A DNA stretch of 61,804 nucleotides, counting the filler, from Basidiobolus ranarum (lineage: Eukaryota): assembly GCA_040143965.1 (NCBI GenBank). It is 5 parts of 5 records of this genome, joined end to end, with 100 filler letters (N's around TTAATTAATTAA, not from the genome) between each part and the next. Parts side by side here need not be neighbours in the genome. Positions count along the whole stretch, not along the records: positions 24,835 to 37,094 come from JASJQH010000554.1; 4 more parts are not named here. One strand, written 5' to 3'. This document shows, one piece after another, positions 3,473 through 49,552 of this stretch (position 1 is the stretch's first letter; each line of letters starts with the position of its first letter). The position numbers were made by a program, and so were the translations under genes. The notes under the pieces were generated by a model. It ran no database searches, was not told the DNA's origin, and saw nothing but the letters and a program-made list of their open reading frames with translations.

Positions 3473-4659
3473 AATTGAAGTCTGATAAATGGCTATTTGT
3501 TAATATTTATTATTGAATAAGCATTTCAATTTTTTAGCCTTGATACTATTAAATGCTAATCAAATCGTATGTTCCTCGCCAACCGTTCAACATAATCGAT
3601 GTTCTCATTATGCTGGACCCTCTGTTAAATTGAATTGACTGACATTGATCGTCAAAATACTCTAGTTTGATACGTAAGCTTATTGTGAATACTAAAGATG
3701 TGACGCAGAACAGGGCATGTGATGCACAGATACAGAACTGGTCCAAAGGTATCTTAACTAGAGACTTAAATAGTGGCAATCATATAAATGTGAATATGTC
3801 ATTTCTAGTTAAGTGTAGATAGCGAATCAAGTGCTTTTAGTTCCATGCTTCTTTATTTATCAACTCTATAGTAGTACCATTACAGCCCTCCAATCCTATT
3901 GCTGCCGAGTTAAAGGCAGCGATCGAACAGGGTGGAGTTTAGAACTGCCTGTCGATCCTGAGAGCATATATATAATAATGATATTCTCATGATGACATAC
4001 TCTCCTGATCTAGTTAAATCGACACCAGTGCTATTATTGGCTCGATCAAATACAGTGAGCAATCGAATTAACATCCCAATTCCAAAAATATCCATAAGAA
4101 ATCACCTTCATGTTCAATCGCACGTTCAATCAATAAACAGCATGCTCTCTATGCGCAAGTTCAGTATTGATGCAAACTTAAAGTGGCATGGATAACGAAT
4201 CTGACCAGTTACGCCTTTGTAAAAGTGAAAGAAATATATCCGGTATTTACTGGTTAAAAACTCCAAATAGGAAAAGTCCAGTTTGGTCAAATACAACTCA
4301 GATTCTTTTCGTATAACAAGGAATTATGTTTCTATCGGATAGAACTTGATAACTTCACCATACGTTCTTATCAATTTTCGTATTGGTTTCGTACCATCCG
4401 TTTTTCATTTTGAGCTTGTGTTATTCAGAACACTATGGTACATATATATCGATAGCAGACCGATATGCTGAATGTTGTAGAACGTTACACTAGCGACAGT
4501 CTTCCGCTTTCGCAATTTCTCATGTAACTCATATTGTCTATGAACAAAGATGGAAAGACATGATTTTTTTCAATGAAACATCACGGAATTATATAAAGTC
4601 GAGAAATATCATCGATGATAGTAAGTCCCATCTTCTAATACATTCTTTCTCAATCCGAA

Positions 4660-5772
4660 ATGGTAAGGGATAGTAAGCGCAATAGTAGGCAGCGACGTAC
4701 CAACAAAGAATTCTTTGAAGAAATCATTCAAGGAAACACAATATCCCCCATTAGCTTGAATGACTTTCGACGCTATTTAGAACATAAGGAGCACAGCTAC
4801 GAGAATCTGGATTTTTACAAATGGTACCTGACCTACTGTAAAAGATTCAATTCGCTACCTTTGGAGCAGCGTGGAAAATCCCCACCTCCAACAAAGCATA
4901 AGCTTTCAATGTATCATGCGAAATCACCACATAATGATGATGATTCAATGAACGCTTTCTCTAGATTGAAAAAGCAGCCGTCTGTATCTGCAGAAGACCT
5001 ATTAGGAGATGATCGTAAAGACTCTATACTTGAACTCTCTAAACTTGAACCTGCGGCTTTAAACAGAATGTCCTTCACATACGTTGATTTAGAGCTCAAA
5101 GATATTGAAAAGAACCTTTCGGAAAGCAATAACACAATGGACCAGCCATTTCGTAACACGGTAGATGAGGCAATCAAGAAATACTTCTCTCCCAATTCAG
5201 ATACCGAAGTAAACATTAGTAGTAATATCCGAACTCAGCTATTGAAAGATGCTAAAAAAACCACTAATCCTGAAATTTTCGAAAACGCCATTAGCGAAGT
5301 TTTGTCGATGCTAGTCAACTCGTCTATCCCTAACTTTCGAGCTGCAGCTGTTCAAAATATCGCACCTAGCACAGTTATGTGGCGTATTATACGTACCACT
5401 ATAGTTCTGTTTATATGCTGCGGCGTTCTTATCTGGATCTTTGCATCTCGTCAAGAAAAATGGTACCGAGCAACCGTGCTTCCAGTTTTGGCATGGGTGA
5501 TTATCAGTTATATTACCAATGTTAAAGGAGTGTGTTTAGTCAACCAATTTAATGGTAAACGGGAAGTGCTCGATTTCGAAGAGGCCTGCGATATAAGTCA
5601 AATATACACACGACCATTGTATTACATGGTACTGCCAAAATCCGAACTACTTGATAAAGAAACCGATCCAAGAATCCAGAGGGAACGATACAAGCTGGCA
5701 ATCATGATGATTATCTCGACTCTTCTAAGCTGTGGAGCATTATTTGCGTCCATTATGTTGATTCCTAGATAG
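4660..5772 (+). CDS. RGS-domain membrane protein, Rax1-like
   Basis: 'PISLNDFRRYLEHKEHSYENLDFYKW' and 'KYFSPNSDTEVNISSNIR' RGS segments, followed by three hydrophobic helices; intronless 370 aa. Confidence 0.8.
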   Translation: MVRDSKRNSRQRRTNKEFFEEIIQGNTISPISLNDFRRYLEHKEHSYENLDFYKWYLTYCKRFNSLPLEQRGKSPPPTKHKLSMYHAKSPHNDDDSMNAFSRLKKQPSVSAEDLLGDDRKDSILELSKLEPAALNRMSFTYVDLELKDIEKNLSESNNTMDQPFRNTVDEAIKKYFSPNSDTEVNISSNIRTQLLKDAKKTTNPEIFENAISEVLSMLVNSSIPNFRAAAVQNIAPSTVMWRIIRTTIVLFICCGVLIWIFASRQEKWYRATVLPVLAWVIISYITNVKGVCLVNQFNGKREVLDFEEACDISQIYTRPLYYMVLPKSELLDKETDPRIQRERYKLAIMMIISTLLSCGALFASIMLIPR

Positions 5773-12332: not shown

Positions 12333-12432
12333 NNNNNNNNNNNNNNNNNNNNNNNNNNNNNNNNNNNNNNNNNNNNTTAATTAATTAANNNNNNNNNNNN
12401 NNNNNNNNNNNNNNNNNNNNNNNNNNNNNNNN
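12333..12432. other. Artificial contig linker (N44-TTAATTAATTAA-N44)
   Basis: Identical 100-nt spacer with stops in all six frames, recurring about every 12.3 kb. Confidence 0.99.
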
Positions 12433-24734: not shown

Positions 24735-24834
24735 NNNNNNNNNNNNNNNNNNNNNNNNNNNNNNNNNNNNNNNNNNNNTTAATTAATTAANNNNNNNNNN
24801 NNNNNNNNNNNNNNNNNNNNNNNNNNNNNNNNNN
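24735..24834. other. Artificial contig linker
   Basis: N44-TTAATTAATTAA-N44. Confidence 0.99.
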
Positions 24835-25466: not shown

Positions 25467-26489
25467 TCAAGCAGTAAGTACACTTAGTTCATGCTGAAAA
25501 TACGCGGGTGGCATTTCCGTCTTGGTTGTTGCATATGTGGGCGGACTATCGAATCGAATTATTTCATATGTTGGCAACTGCTCATACACTATCTCTGAGG
25601 ATGAGGGAGTCGTAGTATGTTGGACAATGCATATTGGAAGCAACGAGCGGATTTGTTGGATTTTTCCATCGATTTCGACATCGATTTTTGTGGAAAGGCT
25701 ATGTGCAACTTGTACGTAAGGTGTAGCTGAGTCGAAATGCACATTTTTACTTGATTTTGGGACCGTTAGCGACAGATGACTTACATCGTGGCCTTCAGAA
25801 GTTTCGCTCCCAGCAGTCTGTAACCATTTTTTGACACAACAGCTTTCGTCCACCGAGCTACCATCGGCATTATAGTAGGTGGTTTTTTCATTTAAACCAG
25901 CCCATACACTGACTATTTTACATCTTGTATCCAAGGGTTGATGTTTGAAAGTGACTGAGAAACTATCGCCAAGGATGTATTCATGACTAGGTATGATAAC
26001 CTCATAGTTGACCATATCTTTCCATGAGTTCTGAATATGGGTGTTGTAGGCGACTGATAAAACGGGGCCATTATTCCTGTGAATAAAGACAGGTTTATCT
26101 GTTCTAATATTGGAAGAAAACATCGGTGTTTCCACTGACGCCTTTAGACTGTATTGGATCTTAGCATAATCAGCAATACAGGTTTCCGGAAGGTCGGATG
26201 GCAAAGGAAGCTCAAAATCGTACGTATAGTTCTGATGTGCGTTGAAAGTAGTGGAACCGACATTTTGGTGCATGGTCCACGTATGTTTAAACAGAGTTTT
26301 ACGTGTAGATTGAAATCCTCTGTTCAACAGCAACTTCCCGCGAAAGCAAAGGGTAATGAACAAAACTTTGACAGGTGTGGATGGCCTAAAGATGACTTTT
26401 CCTTTAAGGACAGAGGCTGAGCTATCTTCCTCGAAGGCACTCTTGTAAAACGTATCCTGATCCAACTGAATTTGAAGTTTCGGACTCAT
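25467..26489 (-). CDS. Alpha-arrestin-like protein with three C-terminal PY motifs
   Basis: 'VLKGKVIF..PVKVLFITLCFRG', 'YTYDFELPLPSDLPET...KIQYSLKASVE'; tail LPTY, PPTY, PPAY; likely ATG at 26489. Confidence 0.88.
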   Translation of the reverse strand: MSPKLQIQLDQDTFYKSAFEEDSSASVLKGKVIFRPSTPVKVLFITLCFRGKLLLNRGFQSTRKTLFKHTWTMHQNVGSTTFNAHQNYTYDFELPLPSDLPETCIADYAKIQYSLKASVETPMFSSNIRTDKPVFIHRNNGPVLSVAYNTHIQNSWKDMVNYEVIIPSHEYILGDSFSVTFKHQPLDTRCKIVSVWAGLNEKTTYYNADGSSVDESCCVKKWLQTAGSETSEGHDVSHLSLTVPKSSKNVHFDSATPYVQVAHSLSTKIDVEIDGKIQQIRSLLPICIVQHTTTPSSSEIVYEQLPTYEIIRFDSPPTYATTKTEMPPAYFQHELSVLTA

Positions 26490-29400
26490 GATAAGTGAAT
26501 TAGCTTTATCTAGTGGGTATTGGATTTCAGAGCCTGATGAGCATTTGGCTAACTGCCCACCCACCAACTTTTATAATCAGCACCAATGTCACAATCACGA
26601 TAAATTATTTCTAATTTAGTAAACTTATTAAGGGTTTTTTGAAGAGCAGATACTCTACCCTTGATCTAGCTCGCAATCAGTGAAGCTGTAGATATGGTTG
26701 CTTGTAGCAGTTTATCCGTATGTCACTGCGATAACACTTCAGATCTTTCTCCACCAATACTTTTTAGCTACTGAACCACGAATCGTCATCTAGAACAGGG
26801 GTTTGGGATCGTATTTGTAGTAATTTGGCTTTAAATAGTGAGTTTGGGGCCTTAATGACATTTTACTCGCTCTTAAGATCAGGTTGGTAGCGAAGAATTT
26901 TCATAATCACCAACTAAAACTTATTTAGGATAGCACGCTAGCAAAGCACATATATGGTTCACTCCTTAGTTGATAAATAGACCAAATTTAGGAACTTGTT
27001 TCTCCTTCCGCTTAAGTCAACTCCGATCTGTCTTTTTCTCTACCACTTTGAGAAACCCAGCTTCCCTATGCGACGATCAGCAACCCTGATATCCACAATC
27101 GAAGCTCGGAGATGTGATGATAATGAGACAGGCAGTTGGTGCGAAATAGTAATGTGGAGCTAATTCGTATCATATATTTGTGCTAGATTGGTCCATATTG
27201 GGTCTCAGCAATCTTGAGGTAGGATCTGTGCAGATATGGACTACTAGCCAGGATTTGGTAAATCGAGTATCCGGATGTTCATGATACCGTCAATACGACA
27301 AGCACAGCAAGAAGATTGTTTATCTTGCAATCGCAACTAGGGATAGCGATGATTGTCGATTAATTGCATCAGTGTGGTGATTGCTCCCTTGATAGTGGTG
27401 TCGTTATGGCGTGTAACATAAATAAAGTATCCGGCTATTGGTGCCAACGGTTATGATATGTCATAAGTAACAATGACCCAGAATTTGACATTCATGCCAA
27501 TCAAAGATATCGCCATATCTGTCGTCAAACCCCAAAATGCAACTGTCAAAATTAAACTTCGGAGTAATTTTCCTGCCATATATATTCAACAATATACAAA
27601 TGATTATTCTGGGCCACTCTGTTGAGTTTGGAGATCCGAATCTACCTAACTCGATCAACAGTCTCGATCTAAATTTAGCAAATAAGGTATCACCCATGTT
27701 GTGAGATTGGTTAGTCTGGATGATTTACTTACTAAACAACTCTTCCGTATGAAACAGTATAATATAAAAGAACCGAATTAGTTTATAATCGTAACCGCAA
27801 TAATTGCATTAACCCATGAAGTGTGCTTAACCAAATGAATATCAGGAATGTGGCATGCTTTTTGTTTGGCGCGTGGCTGCATTGTAGACGCTCATTGAGC
27901 TTGAATATCTAGCCCCAAGCATCGTCTCCGTGCTCTTATAATTCCTGGAAATACCTGTTAATGTTTTGAGGGCACATGGGCTATTTGGTTGCCAATTGTG
28001 ATGTCAGGGGATCTTAGGCTCTTCCAGAAGCCACTCCACAAACATAAACGCACCTTGTTGATTATGTTAACGCCCCATACACAGGAACCAAAGCAAGCAG
28101 TTCAGGCTGGGTATGTTTCCTTGTTTCGAGGGTATCAACCCTTACAAATCCTTGGACTCCTTGCTATAGATGTAAGTATGTCTAAGTAAACTGGAGCGAA
28201 TGCCTTAGTATATTCGATTTCAGCCCTTAGGCCCTCTAAACTCATCACATAGATGTGGGCAATAGTCTCAATCGTCAGTCTACTAACGATGGGGTATCTA
28301 CGATTCGAAATCGGCGGAATAGCGTATGAGAAAATCAAATGTGTTAGTCATAGGGAAGATCTGCTTTCAAAACATCACAGTCATCTAATGGAAAAACTTT
28401 GAAGCCAAGTTCGATGACTTACTTGGCAATCAAGACCTTTGGTTCAAGACAGATACTTGGATTATCAAAAAATTACGAATCAAATTGGACATGTTTAGCA
28501 TGAATTGTCTAGAAACATTGATTCTCGGTCTTCCTCCTTCCCCATATATCACTTCCATCGGTGCTACATTTGGGTTCTTTCTCTATCATATCAGGATCCT
28601 ATATCTCAGGACTAGGCAGTGTATCATGTACCAGAAATGCAAAGATTGTATATCGTAGGTATGAGCTCATCCAGGAATCCTCAATATAGGCTGCTGCACA
28701 GGTTGGCTCTTTGAGAATTGCGAGATTTACAAGCTATATTTGACAGTGATGGACCTCCCCAAGAGGTGTAACAATCCTATTTGGCAGAACTCTGGCGGAG
28801 CTATCGACTTCCAAACATAGCTTGCCAAAAGTTATTCATCTTGGTGCTCATTCTATTGTGCATTCTATTGAATCATCAAGTTTGTTATCAATACATCTGA
28901 AATGACGCTAATCTCTTGTATCTTAAACCGTGTGGTTCAATATTGATTCATTGGCCTCATCTAATGCTCCTCAATAATTCCCATTTTTCTTTCAGATCAC
29001 CGGAGGATATCGTACACCGCAATACCAGGCATATTTCCACATTGTTTTAAAACTTTCTGACTAAGGTATAGTACAAATATTTCTAGATGCCTCTGACTCG
29101 AATTTTTTACAAGGTGAGTAGTATCGCTCTTAAAACTTTGTTGAGGGGTTTTCTGAGAGTATTCAACTGCTCTAGTGAAAGGGATATCTTGTTCAACAAG
29201 AATAGATGCCATTTTAGAGAGACGGATTTTGATTTACTTCAATCAGAGGAACAAGCATAGAAGATGGCTTTATGGCTGGTAAATTTATTCATACACGAAT
29301 ACTCAATAGAAATGAATCAGTGGACTTTAAGCTCAAGGACAACAAATAGATTGACGCAGGTTGTAAATCAAAACCATAGACTTACAATTGATTTGCATAA

Positions 29401-31701: not shown

Positions 31702-32417
31702 GAAATTAGGTTCAAAAGATACGTGTTTCAATGGAAGCAATTGGAATGCATCGATGCTGCAATATCTGCCAACAAGAAAGTAACTGAGTCACTCACAGAA
31801 ACCAATGTCCCAAGATAAATGCGGACAGGGATTTGTTGGCTATGTCCACCAAGTATCCTATACCTGTGGATCTCATTGTCACTCAAATGGTGTGAACCTC
31901 GCTATACGTTGAGAAAGTGATTGAAAAGCCATACTTGGCAGTCACCCAAAATACCTGTAAGGTAGATAGACAAGGCTAGTATTCGCTAGAGTTGTAACTT
32001 CAAGGTATAGGATAAGCTATATTTTCTGAGGCAGGAATTAACAGAAAACAGTATCAATTCATGGTTTTTGGATCATGGTAGTACACGCGACATCATGAAA
32101 GATCACTGTTGATGAGGATAAACTAAAACTATTCAACGGGTGTAGATCATCCCATCCGCGCAATGCCTCATCTAAGCATTCTTGGAGATCTTCGGTAGAA
32201 CGAGATGTCCACTATACATCAACAGACACAAAATAGACTAGCTAATGGTCCAAAAAACCCAATGCACCTCTTTCTCATTATGGAGGAATGCATAGGGAGA
32301 TGGCGTTCCCAGTGTATCTGGCGGTTTCCAAATCGACGAGAGCTATACGAACAAATATATATCGGCATTGGTCATCTTTTGTAAATGTATCAGAGGTTTA
32401 TTATGATGATATGCAAA

Positions 32418-33621
32418 CTAGAGATGATAATAGTCAGATGTTTCCTCATCTACATCCTCATCATCGTCCCAATCTTCGTCCTCGTCATCTGTATCTCTAG
32501 GCCGTGATTGACTTGGGTTGATAATTAAGAGTTAGATATTGCACAAAGTGATGTTGTCAAATGTAAAGGCTAAATACTTACATTCTCCATTGTTGTAATG
32601 CTGCACGGAGAAATGCATATTCTTTACTTTGAATATCGTCTAAAAAGCATGTTAGCTAATATACATGGCTTATATGGTCGCTCGAGGATGTAGTTACCCT
32701 GCGAGATCTCCAACTCAGCGCCGTAAGTTTCTTTCAAGAACTCCCAAGTACTTGGAGAGACCAAAAATGCTTCATCCCACAAAATCAGCTGTGGATCAAC
32801 CTTACCATTGATTAGTAGAGGCGCATTATCAATTTTCCCAGGTATTTCTTCATTCCCTAGTAAAAAACCACGCCATCTACTGATCCACTCTCCGTTAACA
32901 AAGTATATAAAGTCATCGTATTGACACAGTACGATTTCTCTTTCCCGTTGTCTTCGCCGATTCAAAGCAACTTGGTGAGAATTCTTGTGGAATGGTAACA
33001 AAGATTCGGTGAGCTCTTCTACCATACGATATTCTGCCAGGCTACAACCAACAATACCGATCCATTTCTCACAACAATAACACCAAATCTCGAGCGTATT
33101 TAGTTTTAATGTCAACTCATGTCCAAACTCTTTCCAGTGTTCTTCGGCATGACCTTGTTTAAGTCTTCCACAGCCTAATATAGAACATAGAGTTGAAGCA
33201 TTTCTCACAAAGTATTTAGATTGTACAAGTGTTTGGACCAACCTACATAATTACAACCAGGTTTCATACACATCCACAGGTCGGGTAGTTCTACAAGACA
33301 AGTATTTCCCTCACATCTTAGAGGCTCGGTATTTTGCATATTCTTGAAGGAGTTTATAAATATTTCTTGTTGTTGTTTTGGTTGTACTACGTTTAAATGC
33401 CAGCAAACACGTTCACATCCTTCTAGAAACATTTTTCGCCAACTCCATTCTTTTGGTTTGAAGTTGATACTACGTTCAACGAAACAAAGATTCTCCCATA
33501 GTTTCTGGTGTCTACTAGCTTCACGTAAACGTTTATTTACTTGTAAACAAAAGTAAAGTGAAACGGAGGGTAGATGACTAAGAATTAAATGAAGTATTTC
33601 GTCTGGAAATTTATCTAACAT
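32418..33621 (-). CDS. F-box / ZnF-UBP / DUSP protein with acidic C-terminal tail (exons 33621-33243, 33174-32698, 32639-32582, 32511-32418)
   Basis: F-box 'LDKFPDEILHLILSHLPSVSL..CLQVNKRLRE'; ZnF-UBP 'CWHL...CEGNTC...LWMCMKPGCNYV|GCGRLKQGHAEEHW...H...IWCYCCEKWI'; DUSP 'YFVNGEWISRWRGFL...PGKIDNAPLL...LVSPSTWEFLKETYG'; all three introns are GT-AG and frame-consistent. Confidence 0.85.
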
Positions 33622-34814
33622 ATTTCCTTCTTTTTCTTTTTAATAGAAAGGAAGAGAGTCAAGACAACATTTGAAATTTCCCACCTGAATTTCATCTTTT
33701 TTTATCCAAATAGTTGAATAGTCTAACTGGTGATTAGTTTACATATAAAATCCGTTCGAATTTCTAGTTTGGTAAATTTAAAACATACTCATTTCATCCA
33801 ATTAGAGTGATCCATTGAAAACTATCCTGCTCAACTATACCATATCACTCTGATCCACCTTTCACCTTCCAGATTACATTGAACTTGTTCCATCGGGCCA
33901 GGGGTTATCGGGCCTTGGCTCAATATTCTAGAGGAATTGAGATTGAAATTGATTGTGCCAAATTGTGCGGCATAATTTTTAGAATACTCTATCCAATATT
34001 CTATATACAGTACAATCCGGCACTATGGAGGGGAACAAGTCCATTGGTTTCTAAAGAGTTTATTACGTGGAGCAACGTGGAGCAAATGTGAGCGATTTGA
34101 AAACCATGGTTTCTATACTTGAATAACAAGAGATCGGATGATATGTCAGGAAAAACGATTGTTTCTTGAATGAAAATAGATAGTATGATAAGAACAGAAA
34201 TTTCTAGTGTTTGGCATATTGAAGTAGATTTAAGGATCTTCTGATGTACCCGAAATGTAAGGATGGAAATCTGAGAACAATATGTACCCAAAATGAGGCA
34301 ATATAAACTATGCAACAAAGAGTGGTGAAATAAAGTAAACAAACCTATTTTTATTTCATGTATATTTGCAAGATGCCTAAACAATGGTGTTTCACAAGGG
34401 AACTCAGTAATGTGTATTATGATGGATTTTTAACTGGAAACCTAGGAGACTGATATACTTCGACGGGTTCCACTTGGATGCGCTCTCACTGGGTATTTTC
34501 GTGATCACCGTGGTTGAACATCTGAACATTATGTAGAGCCTATAATCCATTAAAGCCCGCTCTTACTTTTCCCATCGATTTCCTGCTAAACAAAGTAGAA
34601 GAGATGATCGATTATTTGAATGATGGGAATTTATTAAATGTATATGAGTAATCGCCACTACTTGGTAACTAAAGAAACATTTAAAAAGAAATTCCCGTTT
34701 GAGATGTCAAGATTTGCCATTCGAACAAAATTATGAAGTTAATGGTTGATAAGTTAAGAAGAAAAAACTTTCCGATAGAATTAGCAATAAATATAGATAT
34801 GTTTGATCGATAAG

Positions 34815-37094: not shown

Positions 37095-37194
37095 NNNNNN
37101 NNNNNNNNNNNNNNNNNNNNNNNNNNNNNNNNNNNNNNTTAATTAATTAANNNNNNNNNNNNNNNNNNNNNNNNNNNNNNNNNNNNNNNNNNNN
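37095..37194. other. Artificial contig linker
   Basis: N44-TTAATTAATTAA-N44. Confidence 0.99.
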
Positions 37195-49452: not shown

Positions 49453-49552
49453 NNNNNNNNNNNNNNNNNNNNNNNNNNNNNNNNNNNNNNNNNNNNTTAA
49501 TTAATTAANNNNNNNNNNNNNNNNNNNNNNNNNNNNNNNNNNNNNNNNNNNN
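49453..49552. other. Artificial contig linker
   Basis: N44-TTAATTAATTAA-N44. Confidence 0.99.

Follow-up and report, generated by a model that had tools for sequence, protein, structure and literature searches.

A small Basidiobolus ranarum protein joining an F-box to deubiquitinase-type ZnF-UBP and DUSP modules, a candidate SCF substrate receptor

The only enzyme type known to contain both a zf-UBP and a DUSP domain is represented by the deubiquitinases USP20 and USP33 (VDU2 and VDU1). ZnF-UBP fingers are also found in HDAC6, USP5 and USP16, which read free tails, and in BRAP2 (IMP), which provides a precedent for an E3 ligase equipped with such a finger. Free C-terminal diglycine degrons are further recognized by the cullin-RING (CRL2) receptors of the KLHDC2 type, which are built from kelch repeats. 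Ubiquitin binding by ZnF-UBP fingers has been explained by a key Arg and up to five aromatic residues in a report which counts eight of the 14 human fingers as ubiquitin binders and gives no binding for those of USP20 and USP33 (PMC13493902). The same source describes the USP16 finger as also binding the GG-ended tails of histone H4 and Fubi, the BRAP2 finger as binding the C-terminal peptide of ubiquitin weakly, and the USP49 finger as not binding this peptide although its Arg is present, and therefore the Arg is not fully predictive of binding. The zf-UBP and the second DUSP domain (DUSP2) of USP20/33 are reported in a preprint to bind short internal motifs, with a motif pocket overlapping that of the ubiquitin tail and an acidic pair needed for [KR]xxL[NED] motifs (bioRxiv 10.1101/2025.09.22.676098).

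The gene described here is located at positions 32418-33621, on the minus strand of a 61,804-nt window (the whole stretch of B. ranarum DNA that was analysed), in the part taken from JASJQH010000554.1 (24,835-37,094). The stop-to-stop ORFs on the minus strand of the locus span 33205-33639 and 32624-33250, and the ATG at 33621 is the earliest one past an in-frame stop. The initial annotation had proposed three frame-consistent GT-AG introns and a protein of about 335 amino acids, and its coordinates hold: the four exons (33621-33243, 33174-32698, 32639-32582 and 32511-32418) give a 1008-nt coding sequence for 335 amino acids, which shows 0 differences from the public B. ranarum protein P0001, a protein wrongly named 'USP33'. 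Exon 1 (33243..33621, with the start codon at 33619-33621) covers residues 1-126 and base 1 of codon 127, and encodes the F-box plus the finger's N-terminal half. It is followed by intron 1 (33175..33242; 68 nt, GT..AG, phase 1), which falls between C123 and C128 of the zinc finger, and by exon 2 (32698..33174), which encodes the C-terminal half of the finger, a linker helix with an RRxxER motif and the DUSP. Intron 2 (32640..32697; 58 nt, GT..AG, phase 1) precedes exon 3 (32582..32639), coding for a conserved helix following the DUSP (residues 287-305), and intron 3 (32512..32581; 70 nt, GT..AG, phase 2) precedes exon 4 (32418..32511), which encodes a disordered D/E-rich tail (residues 306-335) and ends with a TAG stop at 32418-32420, all of these features lying on the minus strand. 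Taken alone, exon 1 already yields a Pfam match to F-box-like (E 1.4e-09) and exon 2 matches to DUSP (3.4e-12) and zf-UBP (6.4e-10). Because a single unbroken exon encodes both the F-box and zinc ligands 1-6 of the finger (C73, H75, C103, C108, C118, C123), the fusion of F-box and finger requires no splicing. Removing intron 1 does no more than complete the finger: the match to zf-UBP changes from 44.0 bits over profile positions 16-56 in the unspliced ORF to 53.3 bits over positions 2-56 in the spliced product. The locus represents a genuine fungal gene, whose small product combines an F-box with two DUB-type modules.

The proposed order of F-box, zf-UBP, DUSP and acidic tail was confirmed by Pfam on the spliced protein, with all three domains above the curated cut-offs. 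The F-box (residues 3-47; 33481..33615, minus strand) matches PF12937 F-box-like with an E-value of 7.5e-09 and 35.7 bits (cut-off 24.3) and PF00646 F-box with 2.3e-07 and 30.9 bits (cut-off 20.5). The ZnF-UBP extends over residues 70-165 with 12 zinc ligands (33059..33414, minus strand, with intron 1 inside), as judged from Pfam, PDB and VIA comparisons, and its Pfam match to PF02148 covers residues 106-163 (E 3.4e-14, 53.3 bits, cut-off 22.7). The DUSP is assigned by Pfam and VIA to residues 199-286 (32698..32959, minus strand), its fold running on into the exon 3 helix, and matches PF06337 at residues 214-286 (E 5.1e-12, 46.5 bits, cut-off 29.3). The USP catalytic domain (UCH, PF00443) gave no match in Pfam at E up to 1, in agreement with its initially proposed absence, and since VIA places the end of the finger fold at about residue 191 and the beginning of the DUSP fold at about 195-199, there is no room for such a domain between them. 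A RING finger and the BRAP2 domain likewise gave no Pfam match at E up to 1 on the spliced protein.

The three domains are predicted to form one compact body, the AlphaFold2 model showing a mean pLDDT of 91.7 and a pTM of 0.84, with each ten-residue block between residues 1 and 310 at 85 or more. The modelled F-box consists of helices 7-14, 19-26, 30-35 and 39-50 (pLDDT 90-94), and Foldseek matches it to the F-box chain of Skp1-FBXO31 (5vzt_B; rmsd 1.7 over 72 columns) as well as to 9kbd_C of SCF-FBXO3. The ZnF-UBP fold is matched by VIA to USP49 (Z 11.1), to the HDAC6 finger with a bound RLRGG peptide (3gv4_A; Z 10.9, rmsd 2.4, 97 aligned) and to USP5 (Z 8.9-9.0), and the DUSP fold to the DUSP-UBL of USP11 (4mem_A; Z 10.9, rmsd 2.1, 92 aligned) and to USP15 (3t9l; Z 10.8). 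The exon 3 helix is modelled at residues 291-307 with pLDDT values above 95, and the stretch encoded by this exon is common to the relatives, with the pattern ...Y..L...I..WR. The C-terminal 40 residues contain 40% D/E, a content of at least 30% being found in 5 of 29 relatives, and the last three blocks of ten residues fall to pLDDT values of 62, 54 and 44. Self-docking of this tail, which ends with Tyr-His-Leu, as a pseudo-ligand for the DUSP of the same protein was considered and rejected, as the tail is predicted to be disordered and is acidic in those five relatives only.

A comparison of the finger with PDB sequences retrieves USP33 (2uzg, 2.3e-14) and USP20 (6kcz, 1.4e-12) ahead of human HDAC6 (1e-05). 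The finger shares with USP33 and USP20 an insertion of two residues before GCG, which is absent in the alignments of USP49 and HDAC6. An N-terminal Cys-x-His extension was dropped as a trait specific for USP20/33, other ZnF-UBP fingers such as that of HDAC6 having it as well. The pocket residues pointed out initially, namely the Trp of LWMC, the Arg of GCGR and the Tyr of WCY, are present as W116 (33274-33276), R130 (33164-33166) and Y159 (33077-33079), and are joined by W157 (33083-33085) and W164 (33062-33064), all encoded on the minus strand. In an ungapped alignment with 6kcz, where the residue number of the query equals that of the chain plus 75, W116, W157 and Y159 align with W41, W82 and Y84 of USP20, and R130 and G134 with the acidic pair E55 and D59. 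As the initial annotation had stated, the fingers of USP20 and USP33 lack the Arg: they show GCGE where the query has GCGR, in line with the lack of ubiquitin binding given for them in PMC13493902. The residue following the Arg is Leu131 in the query, Arg or Thr in most of its relatives, and Tyr in the aligned fingers of USP49 and HDAC6. Judged from these alignments, the finger possesses the Arg and the aromatic pocket characteristic of ubiquitin-tail binders, Leu131 apart.

The protein thus resembles USP20/33 in having the nearest finger by sequence, with the same insertion and the same aromatic pocket residues, and a DUSP of the DUSP2 type, whereas it differs by the lack of the catalytic domain, by one DUSP instead of two and by its N-terminal F-box. 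It also differs by Arg130 and Gly134 in place of Glu and Asp, and the query therefore retains the ubiquitin-tail signature. BRAP2 is comparable as a protein on the E3 side with a ZnF-UBP and the canonical Arg, but is itself a RING ligase with a BRAP2 domain and a coiled coil, whereas the query has neither RING nor BRAP2 domain, contains a DUSP and would need Skp1-Cul1-Rbx1. The free-tail readers HDAC6, USP5 and USP16 share the fold, the key Arg and the aromatic residues, but are less similar in sequence than USP20/33, have Tyr instead of Leu after the Arg, and carry the module on a deacetylase or deubiquitinase rather than on a ligase adaptor.

An exhaustive sequence search recovered the family with 116 representative relatives, 27 of which combine F-box, zf-UBP and DUSP, with all three above the Pfam cut-offs in 19. 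The three-domain relatives come from chytrids, Zoopagomycota, Mucorales, an amoebozoan and a rhizarian, while none from animals, Dikarya or plants is present among the 31 named matches (29 with the family domains and two full USPs). A word-index search with P0001 at E up to 0.001 returned three proteins, i.e., the query, P0002 and the BRAP2-like P0003, and one with the family profile at E up to 1e-10 returned five, namely the query, P0097, P0002 and two Mucor proteins; the BRAP2-type proteins P0003 and P0098 are among the weaker search matches. In the protein atlas, there was no usable match by features and no cluster of at least 50 members with the same architecture, and the structure neighbours were clusters of USP20/33, BRAP2 and HDAC6 with TM values by query of at most 0.40. 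The initial statement that no characterised protein of this architecture is known stands for the literature searched, which contains no description of an F-box + ZnF-UBP + DUSP family; the combination is, however, no private invention of this genome, as shown by the 27 relatives sharing it. The protein belongs to a eukaryotic family that is conserved and that is found in databases as 'hypothetical' or under the misnomers 'USP33' and 'USP20'.

Among 29 aligned members, nine of the 12 zinc ligands are kept throughout and the remaining three in 27-28. W116, R130, W157 and Y159 are each present in 25 members and W164 in 26, all five jointly in 20, leaving nine that deviate in at least one pocket position, and position 134 is acidic in one member. 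The Mucorales members have lost most of the pocket and have kept the zinc ligands, the F-box and the DUSP, so the family is evidently able to manage without a Gly-Gly pocket. Mucor is genetically tractable, and its copies are among those without the pocket. The F-box and the stretch between F-box and finger are conserved (P6 in 22, W42 in 27 and W61 in 28 of the 29 members), which marks the fusion as ancient and selectively maintained.

Of the 15 USP20/33-like proteins with two matches, 14 give the query DUSP a higher score with their second DUSP than with their first, and by this sequence comparison the query domain is of the DUSP2 type. A tree of fingers obtained by a quick search (94 rows, 106 columns) leaves 47 of the 86 inner branches open and does not recover the family as a single clade; the relation of the family to the USP20/33, HDAC6 and BRAP2 fingers is not decided by it, and a DUB-derived origin is not distinguished from the reverse. 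A starred clade (97) unites nine USP rows, among them the complete set of seven in which the D59 position is an acidic Asp.

The reading we tentatively prefer, at somewhat less than even confidence, is that of an SCF substrate receptor which reads a free C-terminal Gly-Gly and uses its DUSP as a second peptide site. The N-terminal F-box would dock on Skp1, as we infer from its family membership, and the rigid cassette of ZnF-UBP and DUSP would form the substrate-binding end. The finger retains its three zinc sites as well as the canonical pocket (Arg130, Trp116, Trp157, Tyr159, Trp164), which in USP5, USP16, HDAC6 and BRAP2 holds a free C-terminal Gly-Gly; with this pocket kept, the likeliest ligand would be either a Gly-Gly-ended protein or ubiquitin with an unconjugated C-terminus, whether as the free molecule or in unanchored chains. 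The DUSP, being of the DUSP2 type that binds short hydrophobic motifs in USP20/33, probably adds a second contact for avidity, and a ligand brought to Cul1-Rbx1-E2 would become ubiquitinated. No Skp1 or ubiquitin sequence is encoded within the window. Several points speak against a Gly-Gly ligand: the nearest finger relatives by sequence, USP33 and USP20, do not bind ubiquitin; Leu131 occupies the position of the Tyr of USP49 and HDAC6; nine of the 29 members deviate in the pocket, most of all those of the Mucorales; and the USP49 finger has the Arg and yet is given as not binding the ubiquitin C-terminal peptide in the source cited above (PMC13493902).

Internal-motif binding by the USP20/33 finger and DUSP2 offers a rival explanation that was left unconsidered in the initial annotation. 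The protein would then be an SCF receptor for internal short linear motifs, both modules acting as in USP20/33 and each holding a peptide motif in disordered regions of substrates, which would make it a ligase-side mirror of USP20/33 that could compete for the same clients. This appears rather unlikely, in spite of the top rank of USP33 and USP20 among the finger matches, including the shared insertion before GCG, the closeness of the DUSP to DUSP2 in 14 of 15 comparisons, the motif binding described for both modules in the preprint (bioRxiv 10.1101/2025.09.22.676098) and the persistence of the family in Mucorales without a pocket of the Gly-Gly type. The residues which hold the Lys or Arg of the motif in USP20/33, E55 and D59, are replaced here by R130 and G134, and in the family by Arg in 25 of 29 members at position 130, with an acidic residue in one of 29 at position 134, which makes recognition by the [KR]xxL[NED] mode itself unlikely. 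The conserved Arg and aromatic set also corresponds to the signature of tail binders given in PMC13493902.

A role outside degradation or outside SCF, in which the protein would be a decoy or sensor resembling USP20/33 but lacking catalytic activity, is improbable. Such a protein might buffer free ubiquitin tails, shield clients from a real USP or act with Skp1 in the absence of a cullin, as some F-box proteins do, and it would fit the occurrence of two DUB accessory modules without an enzyme, the small size of the protein, which has no further domain, and the variation of the disordered acidic tail by lineage. The conservation of the F-box and of the linking stretch (P6, W42 and W61) would be unexpected for a mere decoy, however. 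An artificial joining of two adjacent genes or of a pseudogene is highly improbable and already close to refuted: while the public model may itself be an ab initio one, a single open exon holds the F-box and half of the finger, and splicing brings the finger to its full 12 ligands. This arrangement recurs in 27 of 116 relatives; eight of them are single continuous three-domain ORFs on contigs measuring 942-1256 nt, and one comes from a Trinity transcript, which lends indirect support to the spliced model, and the model folds at a pLDDT of 91.7. The antisense ORFs 33251-33553 and 32246-32497 are without a Pfam match.

It is the target of the second domain that defines an F-box protein, and to our knowledge no characterised F-box protein carries a ZnF-UBP or a DUSP in this place; none was found in print either. 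The result defines a family that is conserved yet unstudied and corrects the recurring mis-annotation as 'USP33' or 'USP20' of proteins without a protease domain. If a cullin ligase is indeed supplied with free ubiquitin tails or Gly-Gly ends in this way, this would join the sensing of unanchored ubiquitin, known from USP5, HDAC6 and BRAP2, to the C-terminal degron pathways, and DUB accessory modules would prove usable as free-standing substrate readers. The likeness to KLHDC2-type proteins, should the preferred Gly-Gly reading be right, would consist in a cullin-RING substrate receptor for a free C-terminal diglycine, albeit with a zinc finger instead of a kelch fold, SCF instead of CRL2, and no family kinship. 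It is conceivable, if doubtful, that the family as a whole represents an old eukaryotic group of such SCF receptors, present in early-diverging fungi, Amoebozoa and Rhizaria and decaying in Mucorales, which would serve a zinc-finger C-end degron or free-ubiquitin-tail pathway by ubiquitinating unanchored chains or Gly-Gly-ended proteins. In that case, it would be the ligase-side counterpart of the tail readers of the USP5/HDAC6 type and, with an origin of its own, an analogue of the Gly-Gly degron receptors of the KLHDC2 type.

As read on the minus strand at 33621-32418, the gene draws on two stop-to-stop ORFs (33205-33639 and 32624-33250), and removal of three GT..AG introns at 33242-33175 (68 nt), 32697-32640 (58 nt) and 32581-32512 (70 nt) leaves a 1008-nt reading frame coding for 335 residues. 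The initial annotation had proposed such a model of about 335 aa from minus-strand ORFs and three GT-AG introns, and the model has held: the spliced product shows 0 differences over 335 residues from the public protein P0001, named 'Ubiquitin carboxyl-terminal hydrolase 33 [Basidiobolus ranarum]' at NCBI and derived from a species of the Basidiobolomycota (NCBI taxonomy). The ATG at 33621 is the earliest after an in-frame stop. Since one open exon holds the F-box together with the first six zinc ligands of the ZnF-UBP finger, the fusion of the two is independent of any splice. Intron 1 splits the finger between C123 and C128, and the zf-UBP match grows from profile positions 16-56 (44.0 bits) in the unspliced to 2-56 (53.3 bits) in the spliced sequence. 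Exon 3 encodes a helix (residues 291-307, pLDDT above 95 in AlphaFold2) common to the relatives, and exon 4 (32418-32511) an acidic, disordered tail (residues 311-335; 40% Asp/Glu over the last 40 residues), whose terminal Tyr-His-Leu follows an acidic run and which is modeled with low confidence; an acidic tail is present in only 5 of 29 relatives.

The neighbours in the window are ordinary eukaryotic genes, namely those for arrestin-domain proteins (ORFs 504-1559 on the plus strand, Arrestin_C 2.7e-09, and 25470-26570 on the minus strand, Arrestin_C 3.5e-18 and Arrestin_N 1.7e-07), an RGS-domain protein (4639-5769), mitochondrial ribosomal proteins, ATP synthase B, Alg14, a mitochondrial carrier, Rpp20, COX17, GH16, a helicase, RPS13 and a PHD protein. 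Neither the ORFs flanking the gene nor the antisense ORFs inside it gave a Pfam match, and no ubiquitin or Skp1 gene occurs within the window. Eight runs of 44 N (352 N in total) are paired about 12.36 kb apart, at 12333-12432, 24735-24834, 37095-37194 and 49453-49552, none of them within 3 kb of the gene.

All three domains lie above their Pfam cut-offs, which are given here after the respective scores: F-box at residues 3-43 (E 2.3e-07, 30.9 bits, 20.5) or F-box-like at 5-47 (7.5e-09, 35.7 bits, 24.3), zf-UBP at 106-163 (3.4e-14, 53.3 bits, 22.7) and DUSP at 214-286 (5.1e-12, 46.5 bits, 29.3). A USP catalytic domain (UCH) gave no match in the 335 residues at E up to 1, and the proposed F-box, ZnF-UBP and DUSP protein devoid of this domain is thus borne out. 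An AlphaFold2 model built with a 29-member alignment reached a mean pLDDT of 91.7 and a pTM of 0.84, with all ten-residue blocks of 1-310 at or above 85, so the three domains are predicted to form a single compact body instead of beads on a string. In fold comparisons, the finger (about 70-191) matched USP49 (Z 11.1) and the HDAC6 finger in complex with the ubiquitin peptide RLRGG (Z 10.9, rmsd 2.4, 97 aligned), the DUSP domain (about 199-290) matched USP11 (Z 10.9) and USP15 (Z 10.8), and the N-terminus matched the F-box chains of Skp1-FBXO31 and SCF-FBXO3. By profile and fold, the protein belongs to the F-box, ZnF-UBP and DUSP families. A motif RRxxER on the helix preceding DUSP runs through the family (R200 in 26, R201 in 29, E204 in 27 and R205 in 28 of 29 members).

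When the 158 residues of exon 2 were searched exhaustively, without a profile, against 1.84 billion representatives, 116 proteins matched at E up to 0.001, 46 of them at E up to 1e-10. All of the 115 others were scanned with Pfam, 58 with a limit of E 0.01 and 57 with a limit of E 0.001. The same domain string, whose distribution the initial annotation had suggested surveying, was found in 27/116 proteins, P0001 included, from fungi, Amoebozoa and Rhizaria; every domain exceeds its gathering cut-off in 19 of these 27, and the F-box match stays under it in five (P0010, P0017, P0043, P0054, P0060). Four of the 116 contain only F-box and finger, 17 are true USPs with UCH, zf-UBP and DUSP, and 27 combine zf-UBP and DUSP with neither an F-box match nor UCH. 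Many of the latter begin within the finger, e.g. P0002 from Syncephalis fuscata, and seem to be fragments or truncated models.

Organism names were obtained for 31 of 33 matches; 29 of the 31 carry family domains, and P0061 and P0129 are full USPs. Members occur in the Chytridiomycota (Borealophlyctis, Chytriomyces with two copies, Polyrhizophydium, Rhizophlyctis, Obelidium, Homolaphlyctis), in Zoopagomycota and Basidiobolus (B. meristosporus, Thamnocephalis, Syncephalis), in Mucorales (Parasitella, Fennellomyces, Dichotomocladium, Radiomyces, Mucor circinelloides, M. fragilis), in Amoebozoa (Copromyxa protea) and in Rhizaria (Paulinella micropora), five of the lineages being confirmed in the NCBI taxonomy; no animals, Dikarya or plants were among the 31 named relatives, which are a minority of all matches. 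Eight members with all three domains are uninterrupted ORFs (290-405 residues) whose contigs measure only 942-1256 nt, and the Copromyxa member is a Trinity transcript, so in relatives a single message encodes the three domains. Two longer models contain the unit next to other domains, P0054 (2347 aa) with androglobin/calpain and LD-carboxypeptidase and P0060 (649 aa) with a TatD nuclease. They most likely represent adjoining genes fused by gene callers, and their fingers are close relatives in the finger tree (support 100). Other architectures among the matches include P0044 (345 aa), a second ligase-type kind of protein with a deubiquitinase accessory module, which joins a C3HC4 RING finger to two DUSP domains and has no USP domain, a SIR2 deacetylase domain with two ZnF-UBP fingers, the sirtuin counterpart of the HDAC6 layout, and proteins built solely of two to four such fingers (the last two kinds together P0095, P0103; P0036, P0059, P0063, P0089).

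Among solved fingers, that of the studied protein is closest in sequence to USP33 (2.3e-14) and USP20 (1.4e-12), followed by USP49 (3.7e-08) and human HDAC6 (1e-05), and it shares with USP33/USP20 an insertion of two residues that is missing when USP49 or HDAC6 is aligned. As no gap interrupts the alignment to USP20 chain 6kcz (query residue = chain residue + 75), USP20 residue numbering carries over: the hydrophobic pocket W41/W82/Y84 corresponds to W116/W157/Y159, whereas the acidic pair E55/D59, which grips the Lys/Arg of the motif [KR]xxL[NED] in USP20/33 according to a preprint (bioRxiv 10.1101/2025.09.22.676098), is replaced by R130/G134. The Arg which the initial annotation had placed in the pocket, as distinct from USP20/33, indeed aligns with E55. 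Another source (PMC13493902) explains free-tail binding by one key Arg together with as many as five aromatic residues, lists the fingers of USP13, 20, 22, 33 and 39 as not binding ubiquitin, and reports that the USP16 finger additionally binds histone H4 and Fubi at their Gly-Gly ends. The USP20/33-like sequence with R130 and the aromatic set thus characterizes the finger as a USP20/33-type backbone with a putative tail-reader pocket.

Nine of the 12 zinc ligands are conserved in 29/29 aligned members each and the other three in 27-28; W116, R130, W157 and Y159 occur in 25/29 each, W164 in 26/29 and all five jointly in 20/29, and position 134 is acidic in 1/29. Six Mucorales members (P0043, P0070, P0082, P0097, P0130, P0131) have kept F-box, zinc ligands and DUSP and lost the pocket, one group by Trp to Phe and Tyr to Gln changes and a shortened loop, a second by an insertion and a Glu replacing the key Arg; the Mucor circinelloides finger falls under Pfam detection. 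A simple pattern located the site in nine of the 17 USP20/33-like USPs; of these nine, five have Glu at the Arg position, two have Arg, and Asp and Lys occur once each. The Arg-bearing full enzymes (P0061/P0128 and P0116/P0129) come from transcriptomes of Rhizamoeba saxonica, of an amoebozoan genus, and, via a cluster mate, Goniomonas avonlea, so that Arg may be the older state and the acidic USP20/33 pair a later, lineage-limited change.

As the F-box serves F-box proteins as adaptor to Skp1-Cul1 ligases, while their remainder grips the substrate, the protein may be regarded as an SCF substrate receptor with the finger and DUSP cassette as recognition end. Since Arg and aromatic pocket are conserved, the likeliest ligand of the finger would be a free C-terminal Gly-Gly, be it of free ubiquitin, unanchored chains or proteins with a Gly-Gly end, with DUSP as a second contact. 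We tentatively favour such a receptor, judging from residue conservation. The main rival, recognition of short internal motifs in the USP20/33 style, would accord with the kinship to these enzymes and with the pocketless Mucorales members, but the replaced acidic pair speaks against it, and we consider it rather unlikely. It remains reasonable to let the initial annotation's putative ubiquitin-sensing SCF adaptor stand beside this rival. Both are likelier than a decoy or cullin-free role, which appears improbable, and than an artefactual gene, which is very unlikely.

USP20/33 DUSP2 is reported, in the same preprint, to bind [FW]x[IL] motifs with preceding acidic residues (bioRxiv 10.1101/2025.09.22.676098), and the tail end of the studied protein bears a loose likeness to such ligands. 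The DUSP of the studied protein scores higher against DUSP2 than against DUSP1 in 14/15 USP20/33-like proteins with two matches, the remaining one being a near tie favouring DUSP1; two further proteins gave a single match.

Identity with USP20/33 was rejected, as the protein lacks both the catalytic domain that defines these enzymes and their acidic pair. The names 'Ubiquitin carboxyl-terminal hydrolase 33' or '...20' on P0001, P0005 and P0018, which lack the hydrolase domain, are an annotation error spread through finger and DUSP similarity. The nearest functional precedent for a ligase with ZnF-UBP is the RING ligase BRAP2, and the closest parallel to its putative logic is offered by the KLHDC2-type receptor, the Gly-Gly degron receptor of CRL2, whose fold is unrelated. 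Searches of the main texts of openly accessible papers listed reviews and unrelated work, and the passages of two candidate papers show no fusion of F-box with ZnF-UBP/DUSP. The gene already stands in the databases under a wrong name, and the family, taken as F-box receptors that carry reader modules of deubiquitinases, seems not to have been described so far.
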